Below, in pieces: positions 1,808 through 62,229 of a stretch of DNA of 64,000 nt (positions within the stretch are counted from its first letter, which is position 1; every line of letters starts with the position of its first letter). This DNA is from an uncultured Acidobacteriota bacterium (GTDB lineage Bacteria > Acidobacteriota > Blastocatellia > RBC074), in contig CAWCKY010000006.1 in NCBI GenBank assembly GCA_963796275.1, forward strand, positions 2,272,001 through 2,336,000. Reading direction: 5' to 3'. The position numbers and the translations under genes were made by a program. Below the pieces are notes generated by a model that did no database searches, had not been told where the DNA came from, and worked only from the letters and a program-made list of their open reading frames with translations.

Positions 1808-4489
1808 TTATTCACCTCTTAGAACGATCATCGGGTTTGCTTTGGCTGCACGGCGAGCTGGAATGAAGCAGGCCAGCAAGGCAACCAGCGCCAGCAGCAG
1901 AGCGATCGCGGCAAATGTCACCGGATCGGTGGCGCTTATGCCGAAGAGCAGATTCTTCATCGTGCTCGTCAGCGCCGCCGATGCGACCAGGCCCAGCGCC
2001 ACGCCGGCGAGCGCCAGCTTCATTCCCTGTCCGATCACCAGCTTCAGCACATCACTCACCTGCGCGCCGAGCGCCATCCGGACGCCGATTTCGCGCGCAC
2101 GCTGCGCGACTGCGTACGACATCAGTCCGTAAATACCGATGCTGGCAAGCGCGAGCGCGGCAACGGCGAAGACGGTGAGCAACAGCATAGAGAAACGACG
2201 GGCGGCAACCGATTGCGCTACGATCTGATCCATCGTGCGCACGTTGAAGACCGCCTGATCTTTATTCAAGGCCGCTACCTCGCCGCGAACAGCTGAGGCC
2301 AGACTCAACGGTTCGGCCTCGGTGCGCGTAAGCAGATTGATGTGCTGCGCATTGTTCGCCAGCGCCTGTAAAGGGGTCTGATTGAAGTTGGTGTAAAACT
2401 GGGGCTGGATTGGCCGTTGTCCGTCCAGGTTGTAATGTTCAACGTGACGGACGATGCCCAAAATCTCTAAACTTGGCGTGTTGGGCCCATGCTTCAACCG
2501 CTTTCCAATCGGGTCTTCGTTGGGAAAGTATCGCTGGGCGACAACCTCGTTAATGACGGTCACCAGCTGGCTGTCGCGGGTGTCTTCGGCGTTGAAGACG
2601 CGGCCTTTGATCAACTCAATTCCCATTGTCTGGAAGTATTCTGGACTCACGGAGTAGCGAAGGCCAGATGGTTTTTTCTCAGCATCCGGCCGGCCTTCAA
2701 TGATGAATGCCGGGTAGTTCGCCATCCCAAATGGAAGTCCGTCCGCCACAGCGACCGATTTGACACCGGGCAGGCTCCGTATGTTTCTTGCAACTTGTTC
2801 GAAGAAGCTCGCCACTTTCTGCCCGTCGGCGTTGTTGACGGAGAACTGCATCGTTAGCAGGTCCTGTGCCTTAAAGCCCGGGTCGACCTGTAGCACTCGG
2901 CGGAAACTTTGAATGAGCAGGCCGGCGCCGATCAAGAGTGTCAGCGTCAGGGCGACTTCGCCGACTACCAGCACATTGCGCAGATGCTGGCGACGCCCGG
3001 ATGATCCCCGCTCTCCTTCTTTCAACCCTTCGGTCAGATTCGGGCGTGAAGCTTGCAATGCCGGAGCCAGGCCGAAGAGCAACCCGGTCAGGAGCGAGAC
3101 GATAAGCGTGAAGAGCAACACCGGCGCGTCAACTCGTGCTTCCCCCAGGCGTGGGATCCCGTCAGGTAATTGCGTAGCGATCAAACCCGTTCCCCAGTAT
3201 GCGAGCAGGATTCCTAACACAGCGCCCGACGCGGACAGCAGGACGCTCTCGGTCAGCAGTTGGCGAATGAGCGTGGCGCGACTGGCGCCGAGCGCCATGC
3301 GCACAGCCATCTCTTTACGCCTCGCGGACGCGCGAACGAGCAGGAGATTGGCGACATTGGCGCAGGCAATCAATAAAACCAAACCGACGGAGCCTAATAA
3401 AATCAAAAGAAGCTGTCGCAATTCGCCGACGAAGATTTCGTGAAGCGGCGTAATGCGCACGCGCCGTCCTTTGTTGCTCTTCGGATACAGTTGTTCCAGG
3501 CGCGCGGCGATCAGATTCAACTCAGTCTCCGCTTGCTGCTCGGTCACGTTGGGTTTTAAACGCGCGACGACGTCAGCTCCGGGGTCGCTGCCGCGCAGGC
3601 CGAAGCGTTTTCCCGAGAGACCGATGGGCACCGTGACCTCGGCATCCGCCCCGAACTGAAAATTTGCCGGAGTAATCCCGACTACGGTGAAGCTTTGATT
3701 GTTGAGCGTGAGCTGTTTCCCGATGATACCTGGATCATCGCCAAACCTGCGCTGCCAGAATCCGTAGCTCAGGATCGCCGCCGGAGTTGCCTCCGGGCGA
3801 TCCTCTTCCGCTAGAAAGTCGCGCCCGAGCAGTGGTTTGACGCCCAGGGTGGAGAAGAACTGCGCCGAGACGAGCCGTCCCTGCATGCGTTCCGGTTCGC
3901 CTGCGCCCGTGAGGTTGAAACTCTCGTTTTGACGTACCGCCGAGATCGCATCGAAGACCGTGTTCTGCGCGCGCCAATCAACAAAGTTGGGATAGGATGG
4001 CGAGAAGCCTCCTCCCACGGAGACACGCTCCCGCAAGATCACCAGGCGCTCCGGCGCCGAGTACGGAAATGGGCGCAGGAGAACCGCGTTGACAATGCTG
4101 AAGATCGCCGTGTTCGCCCCAATCCCCAGCGCGAGCGTGATGGCCGCCGCCAGCGTGAAGCCGGGGTTCTTCATCAACATCCGCGCGCCGAAGCGCACGT
4201 CTTGCCATAAAGCTGTGACCATATTCATTCTCCGATTGTTTCCGAGTACGATCGGTTCTCGACGGACTTGCCGCTCCACGCGCCGCAACTCCCGCTGAAG
4301 CATTTCATCTCCATTCAATTCAGCCAGCGTCCGGCGCTCGGCTTCCGCTTCACTCGCACCGCCCGCGAGCAGTTCCGCGTAGGAGTCCGCCAGGTGCTGT
4401 GATAACTCTTCGATAATCGCGGCCTCGCGAGTCGGCTCAAGCTTCAAATTCGCCAGCCGCCGTTTTATCTCTGGGTTCCACTCAGACAT
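1808..4489 (-). CDS. ADOP-family ABC permease (duplicated MacB_PCD/FtsX)
   Basis: [49 protein letters not shown] and PARRAAKANPMIVLRGE motifs; 893 aa. Confidence 0.95.
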   Translation of the reverse strand: MSEWNPEIKRRLANLKLEPTREAAIIEELSQHLADSYAELLAGGASEAEAERRTLAELNGDEMLQRELRRVERQVRREPIVLGNNRRMNMVTALWQDVRFGARMLMKNPGFTLAAAITLALGIGANTAIFSIVNAVLLRPFPYSAPERLVILRERVSVGGGFSPSYPNFVDWRAQNTVFDAISAVRQNESFNLTGAGEPERMQGRLVSAQFFSTLGVKPLLGRDFLAEEDRPEATPAAILSYGFWQRRFGDDPGIIGKQLTLNNQSFTVVGITPANFQFGADAEVTVPIGLSGKRFGLRGSDPGADVVARLKPNVTEQQAETELNLIAARLEQLYPKSNKGRRVRITPLHEIFVGELRQLLLILLGSVGLVLLIACANVANLLLVRASARRKEMAVRMALGASRATLIRQLLTESVLLSASGAVLGILLAYWGTGLIATQLPDGIPRLGEARVDAPVLLFTLIVSLLTGLLFGLAPALQASRPNLTEGLKEGERGSSGRRQHLRNVLVVGEVALTLTLLIGAGLLIQSFRRVLQVDPGFKAQDLLTMQFSVNNADGQKVASFFEQVARNIRSLPGVKSVAVADGLPFGMANYPAFIIEGRPDAEKKPSGLRYSVSPEYFQTMGIELIKGRVFNAEDTRDSQLVTVINEVVAQRYFPNEDPIGKRLKHGPNTPSLEILGIVRHVEHYNLDGQRPIQPQFYTNFNQTPLQALANNAQHINLLTRTEAEPLSLASAVRGEVAALNKDQAVFNVRTMDQIVAQSVAARRFSMLLLTVFAVAALALASIGIYGLMSYAVAQRAREIGVRMALGAQVSDVLKLVIGQGMKLALAGVALGLVASAALTSTMKNLLFGISATDPVTFAAIALLLALVALLACFIPARRAAKANPMIVLRGE

Positions 4490-55123: not shown

Positions 55124-55529
55124 GCGACAACCTCCACGAAAGCCCAAATAAACGCCTTTTTTGCGAAGCTCTCTAAATAATTCGAGAGCGTACCGATTCA
55201 GAATTGATTAATTGGATTTTTAAGCTGGTTGATCCGGGAAGATTTAACCAGTAATAAAGTGGAGGCCTTGAGAAAATGGACACCAAAAATATGACTCACT
55301 GCCTTCCGATATGCAACCTCAAATGGATAGCTTTTCAGAGGCGGGAGGGGGGCTAAAAAACCTTCTTAACCGAGATGAGTTTTTCTCATCTAGTCTGAAT
55401 TTATCGAAGACGGACGCAATCACCGTTTCCCACCCACGGGAGGCTACTCGTTTCGCATTCACCCTAAATTCGCTTAAAATCGTATCACGCTTGCAACCGC
55501 GGTGGCTCGCGATGCCGCGAGGGGGCTTC

Positions 55530-56630
55530 ATGACGCGAAAAGAGATCGAACTCGAAGATTACCTTGAGACGCCTCTTCGAAAGATCGTGCACATCGATAT
55601 GGACGCATTCTACGCTTCCGTCGAGCAGCGCGACGATGCGAGTTTGCGCGACAAGCCTGTCATAGTCGCCTGGCGCGGAAATCGTTCTGTAGTATGCGCC
55701 GCCTCATACGAGGCCCGGCGGTTTGGCGTTCGCTCCGCCATGCCCGTGATTCGCGCGGAGCGCCTCTGTCCCGGCGCGATCTTTATTCCACCCGACTTCA
55801 CCAGATACAAAGCCGCCTCGCGCGCTGTGCGAGATATCCTTTCGCGCCACACTGATATTATCGAGCCGCTTTCGCTCGACGAGGCATACCTGGATGTAAC
55901 AGAGAACAAGTCAGGTTTGCCCACGGCCACTCGCGTGGCGCGCATGATTCGGCGCCAGATTCGAGATGAACTAAACCTCACCGCTTCCGCCGGAGTCGCG
56001 CCGAACAAGTTCCTAGCCAAGATCGCTTCTGACTGGCGCAAACCGGACGGGCTCTTCGTGATTCAGCCGGATGAAGTGATCGCCTTTCTCATGCCGCTCG
56101 CCGTCAGCCGGATTCCCGGTGTGGGTAAAGTCACGGAAATCCGATTGAAGGAACTGGGCGTCGCAACTGTCGTAGACCTCCGTGATCTCGGGCTGGAAGC
56201 GCTTGAAAGCAAGTTCGGTCGGTACGGGCGCCGTCTCTATGAACTGGCGAACGGCATTGATCACAATCCGGTTGTGTCCGACAGGCCGACGAAGTCGATC
56301 TCCGCTGAAGATACCTTCGAACGCGACCTGCCGCTTTGCGAGACAGAGGATCCGATTAGACGACTCGCTGAGAAAGTATGGGCGGCTGCTCGGAAAGACG
56401 CCCGTATCCCGCGAACTGTCGTACTTAAATTGAAGACGAGCGACTTCAATATTATGACACGCAGCCATACACCGCCGAGCCCTCCAGTTAGTTGTGAGGA
56501 GTTCACGGCCATTGCGCTCTCGTTGCGAGAACGCGTCGAATCATCCCCTGATCAGCGATTCCGCCTGGTGGGTGTGGGATTGAGCAACTTCATAGTCCCC
56601 GAACAGCCACAACCGACGCTCTTCGATTAG
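55530..56630 (+). CDS. dinB: DNA polymerase IV
   Basis: HIDMDAFYASVEQRD, SYEARRFGVRSAM, SLDEAYLD and NKFLAKIASD motifs; C-terminal clamp-binding-like QPTLF. Confidence 0.96.
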   Translation: MTRKEIELEDYLETPLRKIVHIDMDAFYASVEQRDDASLRDKPVIVAWRGNRSVVCAASYEARRFGVRSAMPVIRAERLCPGAIFIPPDFTRYKAASRAVRDILSRHTDIIEPLSLDEAYLDVTENKSGLPTATRVARMIRRQIRDELNLTASAGVAPNKFLAKIASDWRKPDGLFVIQPDEVIAFLMPLAVSRIPGVGKVTEIRLKELGVATVVDLRDLGLEALESKFGRYGRRLYELANGIDHNPVVSDRPTKSISAEDTFERDLPLCETEDPIRRLAEKVWAAARKDARIPRTVVLKLKTSDFNIMTRSHTPPSPPVSCEEFTAIALSLRERVESSPDQRFRLVGVGLSNFIVPEQPQPTLFD

Positions 56631-56755: not shown

Positions 56756-58252
56756 CTAAAACGTGATGCTATAACTGAAACCGGGTTTATTTGCGAAGGC
56801 CAGCACGAACGAGAAGTTGTGCCTCCCGTGCGCATAGTTCACCATAGGATGCACTCGAACGCCGTCATAAATGACCAGCGATGATATCTTCTTGGTAAAG
56901 TACACATTCAGCCCGGCCACTGGCCGCCAGTTGTGCTCATACGTTCCGTAAGCCACGCCAGCATACGGAGCGATGGGCAGCCCTGTTTCACGCTTCAGGT
57001 TTTTACTGAAGGTTGCGTAAAACGACTGACCGTCGGGCGTGCCGATTCGGTCGGAACTCGTGCCGAGAATCAGCGCCGGGCGGCGTTCAGTCTCCGGCAT
57101 AACCAACCAGTTGATCAGCGGACTCACCCTGCCGCTTGCATCCTCAGCGCGTGGATTGAATTCAACCCCCGCAGATAATCTAGGATAAATCCGGTATGTG
57201 AGTGTGGTTCGGACAGTCGCGCGCGGCACGGCTCCCGGAATGACACGCGTCCCGAAAGTCCATTTATCTTCACTTACGTTCACTGCCCCGCTCACGGCGC
57301 GGCCCTCGCCCGGTCAGAGCGGTCAGCTAGGTACGCTGGAAACCTCGAGTGTCGATTTACTTTTGGCCATGGCTATCTGTTCGCGTTTTGCTTCGCGCTC
57401 GCCTTGCGCCACCAGCTTTTCGAGGTGCTTTTTGATCTCTTCCTGCGTCACGACGCTTCTATATATCGCCACTATCTTTCCATCGCGCCCGATGATGGCT
57501 GTGCCGGGCAGCCCGGGTCCGAGGCCGAACTGAGCCATCTGTTCCGTAGTTGCGCCCATCCAGACCGGGAAGTTGACGATTGTCTCCTTGATGAATTGTC
57601 GCACTGCCTTCAGTTCGGCGAATGTGTCAGCCGAAGCGCCGATGACCTGCACTCCGTAAGCAGCGTAACTGTTCTGGATAGCCGCCAGATCGGGCATCTC
57701 CTTCTTGCACGGTCCGCACCACGTCGCCCAGAAGTTCAGCACGACGATCCGCCCGCGGTATGAGCTCAATTTCTGATCCACCCCGAACAGGTCTTTCAAC
57801 ACCAGTTCGGTCTCTTTCCCTATGACGTCAGGAGAAGCCGGTTCTGAAGGCTTGGATAGAACTTTAAGATCGTCCACTTTGACAAAGTTTTGTTTCTTAC
57901 TGACGCGAACCGGGCCGGTGATTTCCACGCGGCTGCCGACATAACTCAGCCAGTTCGGCTCCGGACGTTTGAACTTTCCGTCTTCGAGTTGATAGAACTT
58001 CGTGGCGCCGTCCTGTGCCGCTACCGCCAAAAGTGTCGGGTCGCCATTGGCGATGCACTTGGCGGCTTGCGTCAGGTCTTCTTGCGAGCCGTACGGGACT
58101 TTCCGGCGGTCGGCCTTATTCCAGCAATCTAAACAACACACGATCTGACCTTCGATAAAGCCACTCGCCTTTGCCGCTTGCGCCGAGGCAGGCTGAAAGA
58201 AAAGCGACGATGTCAAAATAGATAACAAGAGTGACAATATTATTCGATTCAC
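56756..58252 (-). CDS. Predicted double-selenocysteine (UxxU) exported protein: signal peptide, CCxxC domain, TlpA thioredoxin, U-P-L-U, beta-barrel-like domain (~498 aa)
   Basis: ORFs 57323..58294 and 56756..57295 are in frame; the junction reads VSSVPS-TGA-P-L-TGA-PGEGRAVSG. WATWCGPC motif; C-terminal FSYSITF; GTG start at 58252 with a GGGGAG RBS. The TlpA part alone is high confidence; the read-through is inferred. Confidence 0.75.
57285..57325 (-). promoter_or_regulatory. Candidate bacterial SECIS element
   Basis: After the second UGA: CCGGGCGAGG-GCCGCGC[CGUGA]GCGGGGC. The loop starts 17 nt after the second and 26 nt after the first UGA, with G at loop position 2; folded by eye. Confidence 0.5.
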
Positions 58253-58355
58253 GGTGGATTCTCCCCGCTGATGCAGAAGCGGACACGCGGACATCAGCCG
58301 ATAGCGTGATGATTGGGGCGATGAATTTGTGTGTGCGTGAGTGAGGGTGTGGCGA

Positions 58356-58715
58356 TTAAATGCGCAGCACGGATACTCTTGGCAGAGGTGGCGAACTTGC
58401 AGGCTGTGGCGGCCCGGCAGTCAGGTTCAAAGTTTGGAAATGATAAAAATCGAAAATCTCCGAGAGCAGCAAGGGCCGGGTGAGGTGGCCCGCCGGTGTT
58501 TTCTGAATTTTCTCCGGCGGTAGATATCTGAGTGTGTCGAGTGAACAACACACGTCTTCCGGCTCGCTCGACGAAACGCTGGGTGCGTCAGAAGCGCAAA
58601 ATGATTCCCCCACATGGTCTGCGCAGTTAGCAATGCAGCCTAGAGACAAGCAGAGCACATTGAGCGCTAGCGCGAAAGAGAGGAATCTTTTTGTAATGTT
58701 ACTCCGACATTTCAT
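58356..58715 (-). CDS. Cys-rich leader protein (DUF2946/CruR-like architecture)
   Basis: Hydrophobic N-terminus, [13 protein letters not shown], and a Pro-rich tail [20 protein letters not shown]; 119 aa. Confidence 0.7.
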
Positions 58716-58722
58716 CGGCGGA

Positions 58723-58751
58723 ATTATAACGAATGTTTCGTCGGCTGCCAA
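58723..58751 (-). promoter_or_regulatory. sigma70 promoter, probably leaderless
   Basis: TTGGCA-17 nt-TATAAT, then 7 nt to the ATG at 58715. Confidence 0.65.
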
Positions 58752-59830: not shown

Positions 59831-61222
59831 ATGACAATTACAGCGCCCGATCATTCCGAGAATCAACTCATCCGCGCCTTGCTGGAAGCCCGCGCGCGTA
59901 CGCTCGAATTAGTCTCTGACCTGAGCGACGAACAGATGATCGGACCGCGCCTCGCCATCGTCAATCCCTTGCGCTGGGAGATCGCGCACGTGGGATGGTT
60001 CCAGGAATATTGGATATTACGCCATCTTCGCCAACTCGAACCGGTTTGGAATGTGGCGGATCAGATGTATGACTCGGCACGCATCGCGCACGATACGCGC
60101 TGGGACCTCTCATTGCCCTCGAAGGCTGAAACAATCGGTTATACGCAGCGGATCCTCGATCGCGTGGTCGAGCAAACGGCATCTAATCCCTCTCGCGATG
60201 TGAACGTATATAATGACGCATACTTTCTACAACTCGCGCTTTTTCACGAAGACATGCACGCTGAGGCGATCATTTATACGAGACAGACGCTTGGCTATAC
60301 TGAGCCTCGCCTGACCCCGGCTCGGGACGTACCACCGGGAGCGCAAGTTGAGGGAGAGCGTGGAAAGATGGAAGCCGCTACATCAACCGCCACTTTATTG
60401 AAGGGGTTGGGAGACGCTGAAGTACCCGGAGGAACATTCCTGCTCGGCAGCGCGCCGGACGACGGTTTTGTGTTTGACAATGAAATGTGGGCGCATCCGG
60501 TCGAGGTGAAGCCGTTTGCGATCTCAAGGACCGCGGTGACGAACGCAGAATTCGCGGCTTTCGTGGCCGACGGCGGCTATCTGAATCGCGTGTTTTGGGA
60601 TGTGGAAGGATGGCGATGGCGCGAGAGCTCCGAGGCCGAACGCCCGATTTATTGGCAACCGATTTCTGGCGGCCGATGGCTGCGCCGGAACTTCGACCAA
60701 TGGGTCGCACTCGAAAACGACCTCCCCGTGTTGCACGTCAATTGGTATGAGGCTTCGGCCTACTGCCGCTGGGCCGGACGTCGCCTGCCGACGGAGCCCG
60801 AATGGGAGATGGCCGCCAGTTCCGAGCCGGCGCCGGGTGGGCAGGGAATTGCCGATCGCAAAAGGCGCTACCCCTGGGGCGACTCGCCACCCACGCCTGT
60901 GCGCGCAAATCTGGACTGGCGCAATATGGGTTGTCTAGTTGCGCATGCCTTGCCAGCGAGCGAAAGCGCTTTCGGCTGCCGCCAGATGATAGGTAATACC
61001 TGGGAGTGGACCGCCACCGCTTTTGAACCTTTTCCCGGCTTCGCCGCCGGCCCCTACAAGGAATATTCCGCGCCATGGTTCGGGGATCATAAAGTATTGC
61101 GCGGAGGATGCTGGGCCACTCGTTCGCGCCTGATTCGCAATAACTATCGTAACTTCTACAAGCCGGACCGTCGCGACGTGTGGGCCGGGTTCCGCACTTG
61201 CGCGCTTTCAGACGAACGATGA
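59831..61222 (+). CDS. senA: Selenoneine synthase SenA (EgtB-like DinB_2 + FGE-sulfatase)
   Basis: NPLRWEIAHVGWFQE, YDS..IAH, FHEDMHAEA, FVFDNE.WAH, RLPTEPEWE and RRDVWAGFRTC motifs; overlaps senB by ATGA. Confidence 0.88.
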   Translation: MTITAPDHSENQLIRALLEARARTLELVSDLSDEQMIGPRLAIVNPLRWEIAHVGWFQEYWILRHLRQLEPVWNVADQMYDSARIAHDTRWDLSLPSKAETIGYTQRILDRVVEQTASNPSRDVNVYNDAYFLQLALFHEDMHAEAIIYTRQTLGYTEPRLTPARDVPPGAQVEGERGKMEAATSTATLLKGLGDAEVPGGTFLLGSAPDDGFVFDNEMWAHPVEVKPFAISRTAVTNAEFAAFVADGGYLNRVFWDVEGWRWRESSEAERPIYWQPISGGRWLRRNFDQWVALENDLPVLHVNWYEASAYCRWAGRRLPTEPEWEMAASSEPAPGGQGIADRKRRYPWGDSPPTPVRANLDWRNMGCLVAHALPASESAFGCRQMIGNTWEWTATAFEPFPGFAAGPYKEYSAPWFGDHKVLRGGCWATRSRLIRNNYRNFYKPDRRDVWAGFRTCALSDER

Positions 61223-62229
61223 ATATCCTCATCACCACCCCGGCGCCGCCTCGATCCAGATACGGCAACCGTGTAACGGCGCTGCGATGGGCGCGCATCC
61301 TCAAGGGACTTGGACACCATGTCGCCGTCTCCCAGGTCTACGAAGATGGCGATTACGATCTGCTCATCGCGCTACATGCGCGCCACGGCTATTTTTCGAT
61401 CGACCGATTCCGCAGCCTGCATCCGGACAAACCGCTTGTCGTCACGCTCTCCGGGACAGACCTCTACCAGGACCTCAAGCAGAGCAAGCTTGCGCGCAAA
61501 TCGCTTGACCTTGCCACGCGCATTGTCGTGCTTCAACCGAAGGCTTTTGACGATTTGCCGTCGCGACATCACGCGAAAACGCGGGTCATCTATCAGTCGG
61601 CTCGGGGGGGTCGAGCGGTTCAGCCAGCTATATCGGACAACAACCGGCATCCAGGCAATCGGGCCGGGTCACGCAATTTCAATGTTTGCGTGATCGGCCA
61701 CCTGCGACCGGTGAAAGACCCGTTTCGGGCTGCGCTGGCGGCGCGTCGACTGCCGTCTTCATCAAGAATTCGCGTGTTACACATTGGCGGGGCGATGACC
61801 GAGGAGATGGCGGCGAAAGCGCGCGCGGAGATGAAGGTCAACCCACGTTACCTGTGGCTTGGTGAACAACCGCGATGGCGCGCACGCCGCATCCTGACGC
61901 GCAGCCATTTGTGCGTTCTCTCGTCTCGGCTGGAAGGCGGCGCCAATGTGCTCTCGGAATCGATAGTAGCTTCGGTGCCCGTGGTCGCAACGCAAATTCC
62001 CGGCACTGTCGGGATATTAGGCGCGGACTACCCTGGCTATTTCACCGTAGGCGATACCCGTGAATTGAGGGGGCTTTTGCTGCGCGCGGAGGCAGAACCG
62101 GATTTTTTAAATGTTCTCAAGTCAAAGTGCGAGGATTGTGCCGAACTTTTCGAGCCGGCTCGTGAACAGAGGACCTGGAAGAATTTGCTCGCCGAACTAA
62201 GAGTAAGGAATTCGTCAACCAAGCTTTAG
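61219..62229 (+). CDS. senB: Selenosugar synthase SenB (TIGR04348-type glycosyltransferase)
   Basis: ITTPAPPRSRYGNRVTALRWARIL, LIALHAR, LSGTDLY, VIYQS, GHLRPVKDP and SRLEGGANVLSE motifs. Confidence 0.9.
   Translation: MNILITTPAPPRSRYGNRVTALRWARILKGLGHHVAVSQVYEDGDYDLLIALHARHGYFSIDRFRSLHPDKPLVVTLSGTDLYQDLKQSKLARKSLDLATRIVVLQPKAFDDLPSRHHAKTRVIYQSARGGRAVQPAISDNNRHPGNRAGSRNFNVCVIGHLRPVKDPFRAALAARRLPSSSRIRVLHIGGAMTEEMAAKARAEMKVNPRYLWLGEQPRWRARRILTRSHLCVLSSRLEGGANVLSESIVASVPVVATQIPGTVGILGADYPGYFTVGDTRELRGLLLRAEAEPDFLNVLKSKCEDCAELFEPAREQRTWKNLLAELRVRNSSTKL

Follow-up and report, generated by a model that had tools for sequence, protein, structure and literature searches.

We analysed a window of 64,000 nucleotides (nt) from an uncultured Acidobacteriota bacterium (assembly GCA_963796275.1, contig CAWCKY010000006.1, positions 2,272,001 to 2,336,000) and in particular a minus-strand gene in it whose frame contains two TGA codons. 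The original prediction, which was made from the letters of this stretch, held that both TGAs are read as selenocysteine (Sec, U) and that they join an exported thioredoxin to a beta-barrel-like domain. Our results support this prediction. Very probably, the gene encodes a single protein with two Sec residues, and it represents a conserved, mis-annotated family of predicted double-selenocysteine proteins that is spread through soil Acidobacteriota and is unlisted in the catalogues compared. The order of domains, as read from the sequence, is a signal peptide, a domain with four cysteines, a TlpA/ResA-type thioredoxin, a linker, the motif VPS-U-P-x-U-PGEGR, and a predicted 12-stranded barrel.

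Conservation of the two UGA codons and the decoding signals

The minus-strand frame extends from GTG 58252 to TAG 56758-56756 and is interrupted solely by TGA 57325-57323 and TGA 57316-57314. Only CCG and CTC lie between the two, the frame is open again after the second, and direct translation with TGA taken as U gives the junction ...SVPS-U-P-L-U-PGEGRAVSG.... With the GTG as start, the protein has 498 amino acids (aa) and carries U310 and U313, in agreement with the predicted arrangement. The alternative start, ATG 58294, gives a 512-aa form with U324 and U327, and the residue numbers of our alignment A1 follow this longer form. As had been anticipated, public pipelines yield two genes, a 309- or 323-aa 'thiol-disulfide isomerase/thioredoxin' and a 179-aa 'hypothetical protein'. 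The latter is the open reading frame (ORF) 56756..57295, whose GTG start lies within GRAVSG. It ends in ...FSYSITF and has no signal peptide, while the upstream ORF provides one; both features had been noted before and were found again here. At least among the best 150 representatives, most begin at profile positions 18-19, that is, at the GTG of the split ORF.

The read-through protein was searched against 61 related genomes, with the window's own genome counted in. The gene was carried by 21 of them, in five families of the class and with identities of 46-77%. Exactly two TGAs occur in each of the 23 matches that span the junction (one, a truncated second copy, also has a TAA). A scan with the C-terminal part, in which one genome per species was used, gave 53 further loci. 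According to their record titles these were labelled Blastocatellia, Pyrinomonadaceae, and Acidobacteriota, and a second lineage was labelled Bryobacterales, Terriglobia, and Tectimicrobiota. VP[SA]-U-P-x-U-PGE was present in 51 of the 53, and U-P-x-U in all 52 loci that include the junction; the locus L082 starts inside the barrel and covers no junction. In a phylum-wide sample of 251 genomes the family was found in 24, and two TGAs were present in each of the 24 match rows that cover the motif. The 21 include one unpublished genome (G004), and so do the 24 (G107); leaving both out lowers the counts to 20 and 23 and changes nothing else.

For the comparison of the junction, 67 distinct sequences were used, the unpublished L018 and the frameshifted L078 being left out. 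Both junction codons were TGA in 67 of 67 and never TAA or TAG, while the genuine stops of these loci were mixed (TGA 26, TAG 23, TAA 18). Thus, the stops of another kind or the change of frame that the original prediction had named as contrary evidence were not encountered, and the frame is kept across the junction. The amino acids here are fixed while their codons vary. The Ser at position -1 is encoded by AGY as well as by TCN codons, each of the four Pro codons (CCG/CCT/CCA/CCC) occurs at +1, and Pro+4, Gly+5, and Glu+6 use four, three, and two codons, respectively. Position +2 is Leu (CTT or CTC) in 55 sequences and Thr, Val, Ile, or Ser in the remainder. Such synonymous change shows that the linker motif is conserved as protein, which had been proposed as a check. 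The GTG of the separate downstream ORF is absent in 17 of the 67 loci, where the first start lies 14-79 codons into the barrel. Judged from these alignments, the pattern of both UGAs is far beyond chance.

A few copies were irregular. In L078 (around 2984-3010) U-P-T-U is followed by a one-base frameshift, and L084 (2961-3600), one of the 51 loci with the full motif, has several frameshifts beyond it; assembly errors or decaying copies may account for both. Second gene copies occur at G018:C114:33495-34940 and G036:C4:77635-78891, and the copy in G036 is probably a pseudogene, since it is truncated and has an extra TAA. A Blastocatellia-like copy with 72% identity (L042) is labelled 'uncultured Heliobacteriaceae bacterium' and probably belongs to a mislabelled bin.

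A GC hairpin with a G-containing loop had been reported after the TGAs, and it was confirmed at 57303-57285. The loop begins 26 nt after the first UGA and 17 nt after the second, distances that are within the range used for the bacterial selenocysteine insertion sequence (SECIS). The loops seen in the family are CGUGA, GGUCA, or, in a shifted variant, GGG. Among 59 distinct sequences, pair 30-46 was C-G in 42, U-A in 16, and U-G in 1, a change that turns Ala into Thr in the protein, and another pair was C-G in 56 and U-G in 3. When the partner columns were slid as a control, pairing fell to 21-64%. In five divergent loci the hairpin is instead displaced by about 4 nt and has 8 bp, the loop GGG, 97.5% pairing, and three doubly changed pairs. 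Compensatory pair changes, in line with the covariation check that the original prediction had suggested, were found in both groups. The hairpin was judged by pair counts on alignments; single-sequence minimum-free-energy folding of the junction gave inconsistent structures.

The genes for Sec decoding, another of the suggested checks, are all in the genome. We found a tRNA-Sec (62.6 bits, anticodon tca), SelA (457 bits), SelB, and SelD (358.7 bits; contig C7:302299-303228, L085). The selD gene itself contains one in-frame TGA followed by a GU-loop hairpin, CCCAG-GUU-CUGGG, and thus provides an internal control for the decoding of UGA as Sec in this organism. Co-occurrence with SelA is not discriminating among the related genomes, because a SelA-family match was obtained in 61 of 61; it was weak only in G004, G008, and G010, and partial at a contig end in G012.

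Domains of the protein and its cysteine-type relatives

The thioredoxin fold at residues 161-295 is the sole part of the protein recognised by Pfam and NCBIfam. It matched PF00578 with 77.2 bits (cut-off 26) and PF08534 with 76.5 bits (cut-off 26.6), and its nearest sequences in the PDB were ResA (E 1e-28) and TlpA (E 3.5e-17). In NCBIfam, the scores for ResA (100.7 against a cut-off of 170 bits) and TlpA (65.2 against 230 bits) were below the cut-offs, so the domain is a member of the fold family and not an orthologue. Its active site is C-G-P-C with both Cys invariant in the 19 aligned sequences, and no TGA or Sec was found in it. The four-Cys domain before it gave no Pfam or NCBIfam match, and its top score against Protein Atlas was 0.75, to an unnamed cluster; in some lineages its cysteines are patterned CxxC...CxxxC. 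An AlphaFold model of the full-length protein (19 sequences) had a predicted local distance difference test score (pLDDT) of 81.3 and contained a signal-peptide helix, a mixed N-terminal domain at 46-147, the thioredoxin fold, a helix at 284-316, and a beta-rich C-terminus. The motif falls in the low-confidence stretch between this helix and the C-terminus.

The linker before the motif is Pro-rich and His/Glu-rich in other lineages. The second lineage lacks the four-Cys domain and has a signal peptide, a TlpA domain (WCVPC), PPPP, and, immediately ahead of LVPS-U-P-T/I/V-U, a stretch rich in His and Glu such as HEGEEEHQHAAVAMEGAS. Some further Sec lineages also have His-rich stretches before the motif.

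The part described as beta-barrel-like in the original prediction is predicted to be a 12-stranded outer-membrane barrel. An AlphaFold model of the C-terminal 196 residues alone (44 sequences) had 12 strands, with a pLDDT of 86.4 and a predicted template modelling score (pTM) of 0.81. Foldseek matched it to FapF (E 7e-5) and also to designed 12-stranded barrels. VIA-align, run against 48,161 chains, gave Z 15.4-12.5 to solved 12-stranded outer-membrane barrels, including the COG4313 channel (4rl8, 15.4), KdgM (14.7), FapF (14.4), and NanC (12.8), and Z 12.9-14.2 to the autotransporter barrels of EstA, BrkA, NalP, Hbp, and AIDA-I. The alignments to known barrels covered 150-171 residues with a root-mean-square deviation of 2.7-3.5 and an identity of 8-14%. 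Neither Pfam (E up to 1) nor NCBIfam gave a family match on the barrel, and in Protein Atlas the barrel ORF matched YjbH/BcsS-like clusters as well as Acidobacteriota barrel clusters that have either no name or an automatic one. At its C-terminus G505 and F512 are invariant and Y508 is present in at least 90% of alignment A1; the outer-membrane beta-signal is a C-terminal consensus ending in an aromatic residue. By inspection, the barrel part gains a signal peptide only when the two ORFs are joined. Structures with a segment in the lumen align from model residue 1-10 and plain porins from 27-30, which weakly hints that, in the model, the motif lies in or under the barrel lumen.

Table 1. Features of the gene and of the region upstream of it (window positions; residue numbers of A1 refer to the 512-aa form)
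Feature	Position	Strand	Basis
Whole gene, 498 codons + TAG, two in-frame TGA	56756..58252	-	Full-length two-TGA matches in relatives
Shine-Dalgarno-like GGGGAG, 8 nt before GTG 58252	58261..58266	-	Sequence read; start fits homologue signal peptides (A1)
Putative signal peptide, 24 aa (MNR / hydrophobic core / QPASA), probable cleavage after ASA	58181..58252	-	By inspection; helix 14-31 in full-length model
N-terminal domain, about 105 aa, four conserved Cys (CCxxC...C)	57845..58162	-	C54, C57, C80 invariant (A1)
TlpA/ResA-like thioredoxin-fold domain (AhpC-TSA / Redoxin)	57410..57814	-	Pfam and PDB matches
Thioredoxin active site C-G-P-C within NFWATWCGPC	57707..57718	-	C193, P195, C196 invariant in 19/19 (A1)
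Charged helical linker, poorly conserved	57347..57445	-	Helix 284-316 in model
First in-frame UGA, predicted Sec 310 of 498-aa form	57323..57325	-	TGA in 67/67 distinct junctions
Second in-frame UGA, predicted Sec 313 of 498-aa form	57314..57316	-	TGA in 67/67 distinct junctions
SECIS-like hairpin GCC.CGC - CGUGA - GCG.GGC	57285..57303	-	59/59 distinct sequences fully paired
Predicted 12-stranded outer-membrane beta-barrel ending G-x-x-Y-x-I-x-F	56759..57262	-	AlphaFold, Foldseek, VIA-align
Small upstream gene, 119 aa, Cys-rich	58359..58715	-	Profile match directly upstream, same strand, in 26/62 distinct loci
Promoter-like TTGGCA-17-TATAAT (11 of 12), upstream of small gene	58723..58751	-	Consensus match only; 1 found, 1.3 expected in shuffles

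Homologues with Cys at the U positions were also found, as the original prediction had proposed looking for. Two proteins that are 52-56% identical to the C-terminal part of the window protein have CALC (P0002) and CPVC (P0003) at these positions. A more distant group reads P-T-C-A-G-C-A-G-E-A-R, with CAGC in nine proteins. All 12 non-Sec rows of alignment A5 have Cys at the first U position, and 11 have it at the second, where P0078 has Trp. The distant Cys-type proteins have two forms, one of about 210 aa, in which the motif and barrel follow a signal peptide, and one of 389-418 aa, which has two YHS/TRASH domains in front (PF04945, 47-65 bits). The PF04945 domain was seen only in these distant relatives; Pfam did not find it in the window protein.

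A metagenome scan with the Cys-type proteins gave nine loci. In all four YHS-type loci with long flanks, an exported thioredoxin-like gene is next downstream on the same strand. It encodes a protein of about 160 aa with FWATWCxxC, which is 27% identical to the thioredoxin domain of the window protein (E 5e-16). One of the nine contigs ends without downstream sequence. Thus, as far as the sequences tell, Acidobacteriota have the thioredoxin fused to the motif-bearing barrel, and elsewhere the two are encoded by adjacent genes. This fusion or adjacency is the best evidence for a thioredoxin acting on the pair, and the gene directly after the Cys-type barrel gene lends independent support to the relay from thioredoxin to diselenide that had been suggested.

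In one of the metagenome loci (L096:3793-5939, minus strand), the YHS-CxxC-barrel/thioredoxin operon is directly preceded by genes for a histidine kinase and a response regulator of the OmpR type, which may regulate it.

Proposed mechanism and alternative explanations

Considering all of these results, our full best explanation, in which 58252..56756 is one exported 498-aa protein, is probable. SelB and tRNA-Sec would read both internal UGAs as Sec, directed by the downstream hairpin. The barrel would anchor the protein in the outer membrane with its N-terminal domains hanging in the periplasm, where a DsbD/CcdA-type system would recharge the thioredoxin domain and this domain would hold the UxxU pair as a reduced diselenol. 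Placed at or in the periplasmic mouth of the barrel, the diselenol could capture or reduce a thiophilic substrate crossing it, most likely a Cu(I)-like soft metal or a metalloid. The parts of this explanation are not equally firm. On balance, we favour an action of the thioredoxin on the UxxU pair, while a metal or metalloid as the substrate is a tentative choice that we hold at somewhat below an even chance. Hints of a link to metals are the YHS/TRASH fusions, the His-rich linkers, and a PCYCGC-family neighbour in six loci. TlpA is described as keeping the Cu-binding Cys pairs of ScoI and CoxB reduced (PMC6669012), and YHS as a probable copper-sensor module (PMC4626032).

Several observations weigh against this explanation. 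The loci are kin, so the counts overstate their independence. In the main group the hairpin has only six pairs around a G.G mismatch, its one compensatory pair rests on 16 related sequences and may be a single event, and an Rfam E-value scan of 57150-57450 gave no match. The two UGAs, 9 nt from each other, would also have to share one hairpin. Inserting Sec twice in succession may be inefficient, so that much of the product could be the truncated thioredoxin. A search of sequencing runs listed no RNA run with the locus, and the four DNA runs listed shared 0.05-0.09 of its sequence words. The U-motif segment has a pLDDT of 60-67 in the barrel model, a low confidence. Two barrel-family proteins (P0030 and P0037) are without any Cys pair, and three short contigs (573-848 nt downstream) and one barrel-only locus show no adjacent thioredoxin gene. 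As for metals, the linker of the window protein has no His, the copper proteins PcoB (Z 7.6) and OprC (Z 6.1) matched the barrel no better than barrels generally, and the neighbours in the window (dinB, an acyltransferase, and senA/senB) are not metal genes.

Four other explanations concern the gene as a whole or the role of its parts. If both TGAs were ordinary stops, there would be two separate genes, the second being the 179-aa ORF from GTG 57295. This matches the public pipeline calls, and the GTG is present in 50 of 67 loci. We rejected it as hardly credible, because the other 17 loci have no start at that site, a separately made 179-aa protein would lack the signal peptide that an outer-membrane barrel needs, and the amino acids between and just after the TGAs are kept although synonymous codons alternate; in addition, neither TAA nor TAG ever takes the place of a junction TGA, although all three stops are used at the true ends of the genes, and the Cys-type homologues are continuous through the motif. 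A selenium-conditional dual product would be compatible with our best explanation. The gene would then make mostly a free 309-aa periplasmic thioredoxin, and the barrel-tethered form when selenium and SelB suffice, the UGAs acting mainly as a switch between the two. Each of two consecutive UGAs would have to compete with release factor 2, as in bacterial Sec decoding generally, truncation would still leave a whole thioredoxin protein and its signal peptide, and the gene adjoins senA/senB in the window genome and two close relatives. However, the Cys-type relatives make only the full-length form or use separate genes, the adjacency to senA/senB is lost in more distant relatives, and the P-x between the UGAs and the PGEGR after them are strictly conserved, which indicates that the read-through product is under selection. 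We regard such a switch as unlikely.

The other explanations accept the two-Sec protein and differ in what the motif and barrel do. The UxxU pair could be a pure redox centre, a diselenide/diselenol reductase fed by the thioredoxin, with the barrel merely an anchor and with protein disulfides of the envelope or surface, peroxides, or selenium and sulfur species at the outer membrane as substrates. Most prokaryotic selenoproteins are thiol-type oxidoreductases with UxxC or CxxU, according to the 2026 selenoprotein catalogue (PMC13188914), the motif is paired with a TlpA-like reductase, either fused or adjacent, and the window linker is without metal-binding residues. On the other hand, the Cys-type relatives join motif and barrel to YHS/TRASH metal-binding domains, His/Glu/Met-rich stretches lie directly before the motif in several Sec lineages, and a mere anchor would not need conserved barrel motifs such as GTSSDRIGTP; a purely redox role is therefore doubtful to us. 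An autotransporter-like display (type Va) would carry the thioredoxin and four-Cys domains through the barrel onto the surface of the cell and leave the UxxU in the pore or at its periplasmic mouth. The Z values of 12.9-14.2 to EstA, BrkA, NalP, Hbp, and AIDA-I come from alignments that begin at residue 8-10 and include the in-pore segment, in the full-length model the motif comes after a helix of 33 residues, and the Cys of the N-terminal domains are closely spaced. Nevertheless, the values for KdgM (14.7), COG4313 (15.4), and FapF (14.4), the last with a periplasmic N-terminal domain, are equal or higher, and the barrel has no Pfam match at E up to 1, and so none to the autotransporter beta-domain family. 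The linker is poorly conserved and is Pro- or His-rich and non-helical in other lineages, the barrel-only relatives consist of a signal peptide and CxxC motif with no passenger, and a thioredoxin at the surface would have no obvious electron source. We consider this display improbable. We give a similarly low credence to the UxxU lying inside the barrel lumen, as a gate or filter for soft metals or metalloids or as a diselenide relay that takes reducing power from the periplasmic thioredoxin domain across the outer membrane (a counterpart of DsbD). If true, such a device would be unprecedented, and the family would represent a novel type of redox-active channel in the outer membrane, one that uses Sec throughout Acidobacteriota and Cys in some phyla.

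Relationship to known systems and genomic neighbourhood

Our best explanation, a single exported two-Sec protein, was compared with the 2026 catalogue of 119 prokaryotic selenoprotein families (Table 1 of PMC13188914). The window architecture is absent from that table. UxxU occurs there only for Prx-like thiol:disulfide oxidoreductases, NF041115, and an FmdB-family protein, and the only outer-membrane selenoproteins are the GSU2204 family and the FCYXU TonB-dependent receptor (PMC13188914). NCBIfam release 20.0 and Pfam have no model for the motif or barrel. The original prediction had known of no characterised family with such an architecture, and none appeared in the 119-family table, Pfam, or NCBIfam. 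No description of the family was found in the searched literature, and the comparative papers searched by term do not mention it, although it may have been listed earlier as a candidate.

The closest selenoproteins in fold are the Prx-like (PF00578, UxxC/UxxU) and UGC-type TlpA proteins, which share the thioredoxin-fold family PF00578/PF08534 and, like the window protein, are predicted to have one or two Sec in an xx-spaced redox motif (PMC13188914). Their Sec is in the thioredoxin site and they have no barrel, whereas the window protein has WCGPC in that site and UxxU about 128 residues further on, outside the fold and at the foot of the barrel. With the NCBIfam model for ResA-like WAxxUGC proteins it scored 44.8 bits, where the cut-off is 300. 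NF041115 ('putative mercuric reductase') and the FmdB-family regulator are likewise predicted to have two Sec in CxxC-like spacing, and the UxxU pair of the former is taken to bind a soft metal (PMC13188914). However, they have unrelated folds, are cytoplasmic, and lack a barrel, and the window protein did not match them in NCBIfam. The GSU2204-family MtrB/PioB-like barrel and the FCYXU receptor also carry Sec in outer-membrane barrels, but they are much larger, belong to other families, and have a single Sec and no thioredoxin domain (PMC13188914).

In eukaryotes, the comparable case is selenoprotein L (SelL); the NCBIfam SelL-related model gave the window protein 17.3 bits against a cut-off of 120. 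Selenoprotein L, of aquatic eukaryotes, has a UxxU proposed to form a diselenide in a thioredoxin-like active site, with its SECIS in the 3' untranslated region. Its UxxU is within the thioredoxin-like fold, while that of the window protein is outside.

Among Cys proteins, TlpA of Bradyrhizobium, ResA of Bacillus, and CcmG/DsbE are exported CxxC reductases like the window domain, and the keeping of metal-binding Cys pairs in the reduced state by TlpA (PMC6669012) equals the role proposed here for the thioredoxin. These proteins are anchored in the inner membrane or are lipoproteins and have separate substrates, whereas the window domain is fused to its presumed substrate motif and a barrel. 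The YHS-YHS-CAGC-barrel proteins of Armatimonadota ('YHS domain-containing protein') and the proteins composed of a signal peptide, CAGC, and barrel have a homologous barrel with 28-33% identity, for which there is no Pfam family either. They share P-[ST]-C/U-x-x-C/U-[PA]-G-E-x-R before strand 1 but differ in having Cys for Sec, a separate downstream thioredoxin gene, and N-terminal YHS/TRASH domains or none. The COG4313 channel, KdgM/NanC, FapF, and autotransporter beta-domains have a similar predicted fold, and FapF likewise has a periplasmic N-terminal part and a segment before strand 1, but the barrel entrance carries no Cys or Sec pair in any of them.

Few groups of soil bacteria are as abundant as the Acidobacteriota, and about a tenth of the phylum-wide genomes (24 of 251) carry this gene, annotated as two genes. 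The joined gene would add a family to the 119, and it would be one of the very few with two adjacent Sec and one of the very few outer-membrane selenoprotein families. It would also define a wider family, with a CxxC/UxxU motif and a 12-stranded barrel partnered with a TlpA-like reductase. The pairing of thioredoxin and barrel points to an undescribed redox- or metal-handling step at the outer membrane. Moreover, the family offers a natural case in which to ask whether two UGAs nine bases apart can share one bacterial SECIS, and a concrete target for learning why soil bacteria spend selenium on envelope proteins.

When the neighbours of 68 loci were clustered, only the small upstream gene recurred widely; all others were in at most six loci. 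The frequency given for it in Table 1 counts distinct loci with enough upstream DNA. Its product, whose conserved C-terminus reads PP(L/F)xR(L/V)xxLRI, contains a hydrophobic helix together with the cysteine motifs C-x3-C and C-C, and it matches no Pfam or NCBIfam family. It is likely a co-transcribed partner of the selenoprotein gene. A PCYCGC-motif protein (PF13798, E 5.5e-9; L084:3665-4171) adjoins the selenoprotein gene in six loci (L084, L027, L056, L058, L071, and L074), and this family has Sec-containing members according to the catalogue (PMC13188914).

On the other side of the selenoprotein gene, dinB (DNA polymerase IV, IMS family; 55311-56630, plus strand) converges on it with 125 nt between the stops, a gap in which a terminator-like site was sought and none was found. 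The selenoneine genes senA and senB lie 1.5 kb away and divergent from the selenoprotein gene, at 59831-61222 and 61180-62229 on the plus strand, with 497.7 bits for SenA (cut-off 420) and 387.6 bits for SenB (cut-off 300). In L032 and L033, SenA is within about 1.1 kb of the selenoprotein gene and convergent with it. SenA was above the cut-off in 17 of the 61 related genomes, on other contigs than the selenoprotein gene. A conserved linkage to senA/senB was considered and rejected, because the adjacency is not kept in more distant relatives. A sulfatase gene (PF00884; 62733-63998, plus strand) follows senA/senB, and senA contains an FGE-sulfatase-like domain; no link to the selenoprotein gene was seen. 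Elsewhere in the genome, an EgtB/SenA-like gene lies at C7:304824-306107, 1.6 kb downstream of SelD, and scored 351 bits with the SenA model, below the cut-off.

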